From NCBI GenBank assembly GCA_020857175.1, contig GCA_020857175.1_3048.1: a DNA stretch of 64,000 nucleotides, one strand, 5' to 3'. Within the stretch, counting starts at the first letter, position 1, and each line of letters starts with the position of its first letter. The stretch is from a phage. Both the position numbers and the translations under genes were made by a program. Below are positions 51,348-52,987 of the stretch, piece after piece. The notes beneath the pieces were generated by a model that was given only the letters and a program-made list of their open reading frames with translations, searched no databases and was not told the DNA's origin.

Positions 51348-52127
51348 TTAATTAAAAATATATACTTCATCAGTTCCATTCTTTTCTTTGGAATGATATA
51401 TGTTAAAGACGTATTTTTTATTAAGATGCTTAACATTATATTTTTTAGACCATTCTTTAAGAAGAGTGTTTTCCTTTCCGTGATGCTCTAAAACATTCGA
51501 CAGTCCAAATTTTATTCCTCTGTCATTTAAAGAATCTAAAAGATTTAAAAGGTCTTTTTCTTCTTCTTCTGACCAAAATTTATTATAATCAGCAACTGTT
51601 ATAAGATATGGAGGGTCCACATATACAAAATCGCCGTCTAGAATTTTGACATCTTTAAAATGCAATGAACTAAAGATTATTTTATCACAATTTTGTTTAA
51701 AGTGATTAAAGCGTTTTTCACTATTTTTGTTTATAGTTCTTTTTCCAAACGGAGTAGTAAAATTTCCTTTATCGTTTATACGAATCATATTACTAAACCC
51801 GTGAAAATGAAGAACATAAAGTAAAAGAGGATCTCTAGTTTTATTATAATCTTCACGTAATTTCAAAAACTCTTCTTTTGATGTTTTTGATAGTTTATAT
51901 TGCTTTATTACTTTTAATACGTCATCCCATGATACATTAATAAGACGCTTATACATTTCAATAATTGGTTCTTGAATATCATTGGCCAATACAGGACCAT
52001 TGACGTTCAAAGACACTGATAAACCTCCACAAAATAAATCCACGAATCTGTCATATTTTGGAAAATGAGGCTTAAGTTCAGGTAATAATGACTGTTTATT
52101 ACCTGTATACGCGATAGCTCCTAGCAT
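51348..52127 (-). CDS. dam: DNA N6-adenine methyltransferase Dam, 259 aa
   Basis: FCGG (SAM-binding) and DPPY catalytic motif; 259 aa as T4 Dam. Confidence 0.9.
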
Positions 52128-52687
52128 TATATTCTCTCATTTATTGCAGCAAAAAACGAATTATATAATTCTTCATCATATGTATTTGATAGTAATACTA
52201 ACACGTTTTGTGATTTAGCATATTCATTAAACCTTGCTTGGATGGTTGGATTATCAGTAAATGATTCTCTTTTTGTCCATTTATTACGTGGATAATATCC
52301 GCATGGCAAAAAATCTAATATCATCAATGACACAGGGTTTTCAGTTTTTGTGTATTCTTTTAATTTCTCTTTATCTTCTAAATATATTCCAACCGAATCA
52401 ATAGCTGTACCTCCACCAACTTGGTGTTTAATTTCAATTATATGCTTTTTACCGTTGCGAGAAATAACAATATCAAATCTTCTAGTACGCTTCTTAGTTA
52501 TAAAATTAGAACAAAACAAATTATTTGATTTTTCAGTATCATCGGTTAAAACCATTTTTTCTTGATAACTAACTGAACAATCAGTGAAATATTCTTTTAC
52601 TTTATTAAGTATGAAATTTTCAACTACGGCAGATATTTTATATGAATCTCCGTTTAAAGCCATTTCATGCACAATTTTATTAATCAT
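52127..52687 (-). CDS. hypothetical protein with PD-(D/E)xK-type nuclease motif, 186 aa
   Basis: [20 protein letters not shown] (D-x13-E-x-K); ATG with GAGGATGA SD; stop overlaps dam start by 1 nt; own early promoter upstream. Confidence 0.55.
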
Positions 52688-52712
52688 TATATCATCCTCA
52701 GCAATTTATTTT

Positions 52713-52742
52713 ATAATACCATAACAAGCTGAGAAAGTAAAC
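52713..52742 (-). promoter_or_regulatory. T4-type early promoter driving the 186-aa ORF and dam
   Basis: Minus strand GTTTAC (52742..52737), 18-nt spacer, TGGTATTAT (52718..52713). Confidence 0.45.
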
Positions 52743-52786
52743 AAATTTATGAAATTTGTGATAAATATTAATTTAAAGGAGGACAT

Positions 52787-52987
52787 ATGGCACAAAAATT
52801 AATGGCACTTGTTAATGCCATAAAAGGTAATAAAAAACGTATAGCTTTTACTATTTCTGCTATGGTAGGAATTTTACTCTGGAACTTTATTTTATCACCA
52901 ATTGCAATTGCGCATGGTGTTAATATTCCAGTAGTTACTCTTGATACATTCGTAGATCTAGCATTTGCTTTAGTTGGGTTAATTTAA
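52787..52987 (+). CDS. small two-TM membrane protein, 66 aa, opposite strand to neighbours
   Basis: ATG preceded by AAAGGAGGA SD at ideal spacing; two hydrophobic helices; convergent with gene 61. Confidence 0.45.
   Translation: MAQKLMALVNAIKGNKKRIAFTISAMVGILLWNFILSPIAIAHGVNIPVVTLDTFVDLAFALVGLI

Follow-up and report, generated by a model that had tools for sequence, protein, structure and literature searches.

A Predicted Restriction-Fold Nuclease Gene Coupled to dam in T4-like Phages Suggests a Type II Restriction–Modification-like Cassette

Introduction

To our knowledge, the Dam methylases of phages T2 and T4 are textbook orphan phage methylases, and their purpose in phages with hydroxymethylcytosine (hmC) in their DNA has never been clear. 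Does such a dam gene stand alone, or is it one half of a pair? The question is raised by a phage DNA stretch of 64,000 nucleotides (NCBI GenBank assembly GCA_020857175.1, contig GCA_020857175.1_3048.1), referred to as the window in the following. The window is a T4/T2-like (Tequatrovirus) genome, which is 99.9% identical to Tequatrovirus isolates such as vB_EcoM-fFiEco06 over the 2.8 kb compared. Its dam gene (M) is directly preceded by an open reading frame (ORF) of 186 amino acids (aa), here called R. An initial annotation, made from the sequence alone, had described R as a nuclease gene coupled to dam and had suggested that both, together with a small membrane protein encoded on the opposite strand, form a restriction–modification (R–M)-like, methylation-sensing, or toxin/immunity module. 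With moderate confidence, we read R and dam as a self-contained, phage-borne two-gene cassette organized like a type II R–M system. Because of the pairing of the two genes and the pattern of their loss, we treat promoter, R, and dam as one 1.43-kb cassette, organized and lost in the manner of type II R–M systems.

Results

R Is Predicted to Be Co-Expressed with dam

The predicted 186-aa ORF on the minus strand (Table 1) proved to be a real gene. At a G+C content of 27.6% (dam 28.6%, window 35.2%), an open frame of 186 codons is far beyond chance. Purifying selection on R was shown by pairwise comparisons of the coding sequences of its homologs: nonsynonymous divergence (pN, 0.19–0.52) was lower than synonymous divergence (pS, 0.53–0.91) in 28 of 28 comparisons, with synonymous sites being saturated across lineages.

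The expression signals named in the initial annotation were recovered as well. The stop codon TAA of R and the ATG of dam share one base (TAATG), a strong Shine–Dalgarno (SD) sequence precedes R, and R has its own T4-type early promoter with an upstream TG. A promoter is annotated at the same position in the GenBank records of JB75 and Lutter, and the pattern GTTTAC(A/T)-N17-TGnTAnnAT is also found upstream of R in MX01, L007, L008, L013, L014, and L017. The single early promoter and the overlap support the prediction that R shares a transcript with dam, the gene of an N6-adenine methyltransferase, and is coupled to it in translation.

R Is Predicted to Adopt a Restriction-Endonuclease Fold

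A D-x13-E-x-K motif had been proposed as the catalytic core of R. The catalytic arrangement itself was confirmed, with a corrected spacing of D72-x12-E85-x-K87. Across ten sequences, which are as little as 28% identical to the window protein and 26% identical between the most distant homologs, the residues E23, D72, E85, K87, H88, Q89, G93-T-A-I-D-S98, and D125 are invariant. An AlphaFold2 model of R was built from seven homologs (predicted local distance difference test, pLDDT, 79; predicted template modeling score, pTM, 0.77). It comprises, in this order, a helix (residues 15–33), a strand, a second strand (66–77), a third strand (80–88), a helix, and a strand, i.e., the α-β-β-β-α-β core of the PD-(D/E)xK superfamily. 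The first helix carries E23, the second strand D72, and the third strand both E85 and K87, which corresponds to the helix-1 glutamate, strand-2 acidic residue, and strand-3 (D/E)-x-K of this superfamily. A Foldseek comparison of the model with the Protein Data Bank (PDB) returned PD-(D/E)xK nucleases only, and the BFVD model of the ortholog from MX01 superposes on it with a template modeling (TM) score of 0.88. Based on the order of elements, the Foldseek matches, and the BFVD superposition, the restriction-endonuclease (PD-(D/E)xK) fold proposed for R is well supported by modeling. The model consists of a single domain, with no separate methyl-reader domain.

The invariant segment H-Q-x3-G-T-A-I-D-S of R (residues 88–98, approximately positions 52409–52426) comes directly behind the catalytic E-x-K, where the next helix begins. 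It bears a loose resemblance to G-N-A-x-E-R, the recognition motif found in EcoRI and MunI, and is what we take to be a candidate lead to DNA recognition.

At the level of sequence families, a Pfam scan of the window R gave sub-threshold matches only, to DpnII (PF04556) and BanI. When ten members of the R family were scanned singly, DpnII was found for five of them, tied with BanI, and gave the best E-value (8.3e-5). A 290-residue type II restriction endonuclease model of PADLOC matched the window R at 9e-5 and four of the ten family members (best 5.3e-6). PHROGs places R in a family without annotation, an NCBIfam scan yielded noise only, and tblastn of R against plasmids yielded no match. A DpnII-family seed was sought near Dam-like methylases at ten plasmid loci, none of which provided one; what they contained were AlwI- or FokI-type systems, solitary methylases, or pairs of methylases with nothing but a hypothetical protein behind them.

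R might also be a nuclease that does not serve restriction. It could nick hemimethylated GATC in the manner of MutH, or it could act in repair, in recombination, or on particular DNA structures, working with Dam or beside it. Among the readings of R that we weighed, we consider this one unlikely.

R and a Dam-Class Methylase Are Paired across T4-like Lineages

Homologs of R were searched for with a profile against 1.84 billion representative proteins and with a word-indexed search of 5.8 billion clusters. The family proved to be very small: the profile search yielded 11 matches, three of which were artefacts, and the cluster search returned the same set. P0008 and P0010 were rejected as chimeric metagenome assemblies, in which the R C-terminus is fused to unrelated bacterial proteins, and P0016 as a repeat artefact (a 765-aa tandem-repeat translation). 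No bacterial family member was found among the 1.84 billion representatives, and a phage search with the most divergent homolog, P0014, revealed no further cultured lineages.

All readable contigs with R belong to T4-like phages, and a D12-class (Dam) methylase gene directly follows R in each of them. Nine lineages share this arrangement (the window, MX01, L007, L008–L012, L013, L014, L015, L016, and L017/L018). As in type II R–M systems, the nuclease gene is thus adjacent to, and predicted to be co-expressed with, a methyltransferase gene in all nine; at the junction, the two genes abut directly or overlap by 1–35 nt. The closest relatives of the window R are those of the Dhakavirus MX01 (64% identity, to the BFVD model), where the pair occupies the same site as in the window, and of L007 (63%), where the order is primase, small ORF, extra ORF, R, and M. 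They are followed by L013 (59%), L008–L012 (57%), and L016 (49%), each with R and then M. In Klebsiella phages of the genus Jiaodavirus (L017/L018; 42–44%), the pair lies between denB and ndd. L014 and L015 are the most distant of these (32–33%), with a pair overlap of 20–35 nt, and the pair of L014 is located upstream of an rIIA-like gene. Altogether, the pair was found at three genome positions, i.e., the 61/56 interval, the denB/ndd interval, and upstream of the rIIA-like gene. Identities range from 26 to 74% for R and from 50 to 76% for M, so R evolves faster; the identities of R and M correlate with r = 0.88. Together with the asymmetric loss described below, the constant adjacency lends support to the R–M-like module that had been suggested, as far as the R–dam pair is concerned.

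R Is Lost and dam Is Kept among Tequatroviruses

The distribution of the two genes was determined by megablast of a dam + R query against 50,697 phage records, in which a coverage of at least 80% was counted as both genes. The query matched 184 records. Both genes were present in 149 records, and R was complete in 147. About 35 others, including all T4 entries, cover query positions 1–867 only, which corresponds to dam and an 87-bp stub of R. No record was found with R and without dam. In about 80% of the dam-bearing Tequatrovirus records, T2 included, dam is not solitary. Approximately 325 of the approximately 509 Tequatrovirus-type records are without both genes and show the order 56, small ORF, 61, as in RB68. 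R is thus not kept without M and M can persist alone, in a pattern that goes back to few loss events, which are not independent.

RB68 provides the empty site (56, 66-aa ORF, 61): homology to the window breaks off immediately behind the stop codon of dam and begins again at position 52776. Because of this alignment and the distribution of the small ORF, the accessory unit consists of early promoter, R, and dam, flanked by gene 56 on one side and by the small ORF on the other. The initial annotation had assumed an accessory insertion at this locus, which holds for the promoter–R–dam unit; it does not hold for R and the membrane peptide as an insertion between dam and gene 61. Similarly, T4 had been described as having dam close to gene 61 with no such genes in between. 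A full R is indeed absent from T4, but the interval is not empty. Its 309 bp contain an intact, unannotated 66-aa ORF and the 87-bp 3′ stub of R (last 20 codons). The T4 deletion joins two ATCACAAA repeats and has removed the cassette promoter and the first ~480 bp of R. From this comparison, the solitary dam of T4 looks like the remainder after deletion of R.

Further variants were identified. KarlGJung carries a second, independent truncation of R (61-aa remnant) next to an intact dam. A T-run near the 3′ end of R carries a −1 frameshift in T2 and in a few of its relatives, so that three residues (LLQ) stand in place of the last eight, FAAINERI. The T2 protein (L004, 2042–2587, minus strand) thereby has 181 aa and ends in NSFLLQ, and its stop codon is 13 nt away from the dam start and uncoupled from it. 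The R stub of T4 carries the same frameshift variant as T2. Split R ORFs occur occasionally (ESCO58 and G4500). Such recurrent deletions, the frameshifted C-terminus, and the split ORFs would suit an inactive relic that is heading for loss, with only Dam being of importance. However, about 147 records have an uninterrupted frame, the catalytic residues are invariant, and pN is below pS across lineages with saturated synonymous sites, and we regard a relic as quite improbable.

The clean presence/absence polymorphism at one intergenic site, beside a segF-like gene, also brings to mind a site-specific endonuclease of the free-standing homing type, or one that is selfish in another way, comparable to the products of the T4 seg and mob genes, with Dam as its cargo. 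The occurrence of the cassette at different sites in different genera and the early promoter of its own, which is shared by many T4 homing-endonuclease genes, would agree with this. A methylase is needless for homing, yet the R–M overlap is kept across 26–99% identity and three positions. Furthermore, the fold neighbors are type II restriction endonucleases rather than members of known homing-endonuclease families, and a loss that strikes R and spares M follows the pattern of R–M systems. Overall, a homing endonuclease appears rather unlikely. Homing via GATC sites flanking the empty site was discarded, as the 1.35 kb around this site in RB68 are free of GATC.

The 66-aa ORF Is Distributed Independently of the Cassette

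The convergent 66-aa ORF shares its last 4 nt with the end of gene 61. By tblastn, it was found in 693 phage records, always convergent with the primase gene, with Mosigvirus copies showing 52–56% identity. It is present in about 325 Tequatrovirus genomes without both dam and R and is intact but unannotated in T4 (NC_000866, 17738–17938; L006, 3239–3439), and L007 and L010 carry divergent versions of 63–66 aa at the corresponding position. This distribution, with or without the cassette, rules the ORF out as a cassette component, so that the membrane peptide had to be removed from the proposed module. A toxin/immunity reading that involves the peptide found no support either, given that the distribution of the ORF is independent of the cassette.

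A joint toxin/immunity or methylation-sensing system of nuclease, methylase, and membrane peptide would be in line with their proximity and convergent arrangement. We consider it very improbable. Compared with about 155 records for R, 693 carry the ORF. It stays by the primase gene in RB68, which has no cassette, and in Jiaodavirus and L014, whose cassette lies at another place, and its promoter looks late, not early. An octamer resembling a late promoter, GATAAATA, precedes the ORF at the same position in the window and in T4, and AATAAATA takes this position in RB68. MX01 and L007 carry the perfect octamer TATAAATA upstream of the small ORF, which is the T4 late promoter consensus. Judging from these features, the 66-aa ORF is a real and separate gene for a membrane protein, which is probably expressed late.

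The protein had been described as having two transmembrane helices and a near-ideal SD sequence. Its location on the opposite strand and the SD sequence GGAGG were confirmed. Helices span residues 2–14, 16–42, and 52–65, and the N-terminus is basic and amphipathic. One long hydrophobic helix (~16–42) is clear, and the C-terminal hydrophobic helix is short (14 residues) and contains two Asp, for which reason two transmembrane helices are not established. The protein belongs to PHROG 2024; automatic database names for it are “Holin” and “head morphogenesis protein”.

Layout of the Locus

Every large gene around the locus is encoded on the minus strand. The positions of all features are listed in Table 1.

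Table 1. Features of the dam–R locus and its surroundings in the window.
Feature	Position	Strand	Remarks
soc	49829–50074	−	
segF-like GIY-YIG gene, 229 aa	50108–50797	−	between soc and gene 56
Gene 56, dCTPase	50772–51302	−	
dam (M), D12-class N6-adenine DNA methyltransferase	51348–52127	−	Pfam and TIGRFAM matches
R, predicted 186-aa PD-(D/E)xK nuclease	52127–52687	−	fold model and invariant residues
SD sequence GAGGA of R	52695–52699	−	7 nt before ATG; read from sequence
T4-early-type promoter, TTTACT-17-TATTAT with upstream TG	52713–52741	−	sequence pattern; GenBank annotation in two relatives
Whole cassette (early promoter, R, dam), 1,428 bp	51348–52775	−	alignment to RB68 empty site
Late-promoter-like motif GATAAATA	52760–52767	+	10 nt before SD sequence of 66-aa ORF
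SD sequence GGAGG of 66-aa ORF	52778–52782	+	
66-aa hydrophobic protein gene	52787–52987	+	convergent with gene 61, outside cassette
Terminator-like hairpin ATGGCATTAACAAGTGCCAT and T-run	52802–52821	−	inside 5′ end of 66-aa ORF
Gene 61, primase	52984–54012	−	

The hairpin ATGGCATTAACAAGTGCCAT lies ~160 nt downstream of gene 61, and a terminator is annotated here in some GenBank records. Judging from its position, it would shield the cassette promoter from read-through. On the other side of the cassette, the segF-like ORF overlaps the start of gene 56 by 26 nt, as in T4, and is missing from T2, RB68, Shinka, and JB75; no Pfam match to this 229-aa ORF was found at E ≤ 1. As the segF-like gene is variably present, this short region contains two nuclease genes, each of which is optional independently of the other. 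A 118-aa ORF (54182–54538, minus strand) is shared by the window, Shinka, and JB75; T4 has the 208-aa gp61.2 in its place, and RB68 has both. By comparison of these relatives, the site downstream of primase is another small hyperplastic spot.

Discussion

Proposed Action of the Cassette

As read from the locus and its relatives, the anatomy is that of an R–M system: one promoter, a compact nuclease of predicted restriction-endonuclease fold, a coupled methylase, transfer as a unit, and loss of R with M being kept and R never standing alone. The window Dam is encoded at the same locus as T4 Dam and is ~98% identical to it, with a handful of residues differing. It matches Pfam PF02086 (6.5e-51) and TIGR00571 (1.4e-69) as well as the orphan-methylase model of PADLOC (1.6e-183), a database that models T4 Dam as an orphan. 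The T4 dam record is annotated as methylating GATC, and GATC methylation by T2 and T4 Dam is established biochemistry. Because the window Dam is nearly identical to this GATC-methylating enzyme, the cognate site of the pair is most simply GATC or a sequence containing it. From the partner Dam and the weak DpnII signal, we infer that R recognizes GATC. We likewise infer its nuclease activity, its block by N6-methyladenine, its action on DNA with glucosylated hmC (glucosyl-hmC), and its biological role.

The one early promoter would give rise to a bicistronic message, from which R would be translated first and Dam would follow by coupling via the 1-nt stop/start overlap. R would cut DNA at or around unmethylated GATC, and Dam would protect the phage’s own DNA by methylating its GATC sites. 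Since the enterobacterial host chromosome is already Dam-methylated, R would spare it, and its targets would be GATC-unmethylated DNA sharing the cell, chiefly that of other phages entering the cell at the same time or later, among them the two-thirds of Tequatroviruses without dam. In this way, the cassette may work as an element that is both selfish and competitive. As a DpnII-like R would spare the Dam-methylated host and hit competing phages, this role is our best guess.

Several points weigh against an R–M function of this kind. Every GATC of T-even DNA contains glucosyl-hmC, which may itself block a conventional enzyme; both the need for protection by Dam and the proposed phage targets may therefore be uncertain. 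With a Dam-methylated host chromosome, a role in host degradation does not apply. Furthermore, dam-defective T2 mutants are viable, which would argue against lethal self-restriction, although R of T2 has the C-terminal frameshift. Regarding the similarity of R to DpnII, the score against PF04556 is 16.8 bits (E 0.0045) and does not reach the gathering threshold of 23 bits, and R residues 28–113 align to just positions 152–235 of the 278 in the profile. Because of this score and the partial coverage, membership of R in the DpnII family is not supported. Searches of R against the sequences of PDB chains, either with the single protein or with a profile, revealed no match, and the record counts given above are not independent evolutionary events.

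GATC depletion provides no positive signal either. In the window, no other of the 256 tetranucleotides is as depleted as GATC, with 76 sites against an expectation of 217 (ratio 0.35). The depletion is as strong in the cassette-free RB68 (0.29 vs. 0.35; L029, 1–50000), where GATC likewise ranks first in depletion, and 25.6 kb of orthologous DNA contain 27 GATC sites in the window and 23 in RB68. Since it is equally strong in RB68, the depletion is not specific to the cassette. Observed/expected ratios amount to 0.0–0.36 in other T4-like loci, whether or not dam or R is carried, and the depletion was discarded as a cassette signal in favor of a lineage-wide trait. GATC depletion has long been known for enterobacteriophages.

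The main alternative, an R that depends on methylation as DpnI does, would reverse the proposed roles: it would cut cytosine-containing GATC of the host that has been marked by phage or host Dam, and the phage would be spared by its glucosyl-hmC. Dam-methylated host DNA is an obvious and abundant target, the Jiaodavirus cassette lies between denB and ndd, which are genes for the attack on host DNA and nucleoid, and early expression would suit host shut-off. However, R is a single 186-aa domain without a reader like the winged helix of DpnI, and its weak sequence similarity points to DpnII and not to DpnI. Moreover, a phage Dam would be needless in Dam+ enterobacteria, yet R never occurs without M; survivors with M only fit both models equally. 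Based on the missing reader domain, the similarity to DpnII rather than DpnI, and the absence of R without M, we disfavor a methylation-dependent R and rate it as improbable.

Returning to the R–M cassette, a bolder extension can be formulated. The T-even Dam, which has for decades been investigated as an enzyme standing alone, might be the modification half of a GATC R–M cassette whose R acts on hmC DNA and serves phage–phage warfare and selfish spread. R+M+ phages (T2-type) might restrict co-infecting dam-less relatives, M-only phages (T4) might be immune “cheaters” still in possession of the antidote, and the extreme GATC depletion of T-even phages might partly result from this pressure. 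We put this forward as speculation and consider it doubtful.

Novelty and Significance

The 1988 T2 dam paper reportedly described 536 bp inserted on the 5′ side of dam in T2 as compared with T4, with no function assigned. The T2 dam entry of the same year, M22342, contains the R ORF, unannotated, and one GenBank record (Shinka) names R a “putative DpnII restriction endonuclease”. Full-text literature searches found no description of the R gene, and a recent R–M review treats phage Dam and mentions no partner nuclease. What appears to be new, as judged from comparative sequence analysis, is a compact family of restriction-endonuclease fold in a type II R–M-like cassette with an unusual carrier, a virulent hmC phage.

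That most dam-bearing Tequatroviruses, including T2, carry a conserved nuclease of predicted restriction fold coupled to dam suggests a concrete origin and function for phage Dam. If the R–M reading is true, R would represent a new and very compact restriction-endonuclease family that possibly copes with hypermodified DNA, and the cassette would be a complete R–M system in a strictly virulent phage, likely targeting competitors rather than the host.

Comparison with Known Systems

DpnII/MboI-type systems are type IIP R–M systems that recognize GATC, are blocked by Gm6ATC, and combine a PF04556 nuclease with a D12 methylase such as DpnM. The phage cassette resembles them in having a Dam-class GATC methylase next to a PD-(D/E)xK nuclease in one operon. 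DpnII is also the sole sequence-family similarity of R found by Pfam that covers the catalytic core, below threshold, and derivatives of the phage cassette occur with M only and never with R only. In contrast to DpnII, which has ~280–290 aa, the phage R comprises 186 aa. Further differences are the order of R and then M with a 1-nt overlap, and the carrier, which is a virulent phage with hypermodified DNA. In terms of structural class, R appears closest to the MunI/EcoRI-like type IIP branch, at just 12% sequence identity; the site of MunI is CAATTG.

Among viruses, the chlorovirus enzymes R.CviAI and M.CviAI cut and methylate GATC, respectively, and are a similar case of a lytic virus with a GATC-type nuclease and a protecting adenine methylase. 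The chlorovirus enzymes degrade the unmethylated host genome, whereas the host is Dam-methylated here, so the target must differ. The orphan Dam of T4 shares its locus and ~98% identity with the window Dam, which has R as a partner where T4 retains just the deletion stub. Finally, T-even homing endonuclease genes such as segF are likewise optional genes with their own early promoter and presence/absence among close relatives; however, they encode GIY-YIG or HNH enzymes, whereas R is a predicted PD-(D/E)xK nuclease with an obligate methylase partner.

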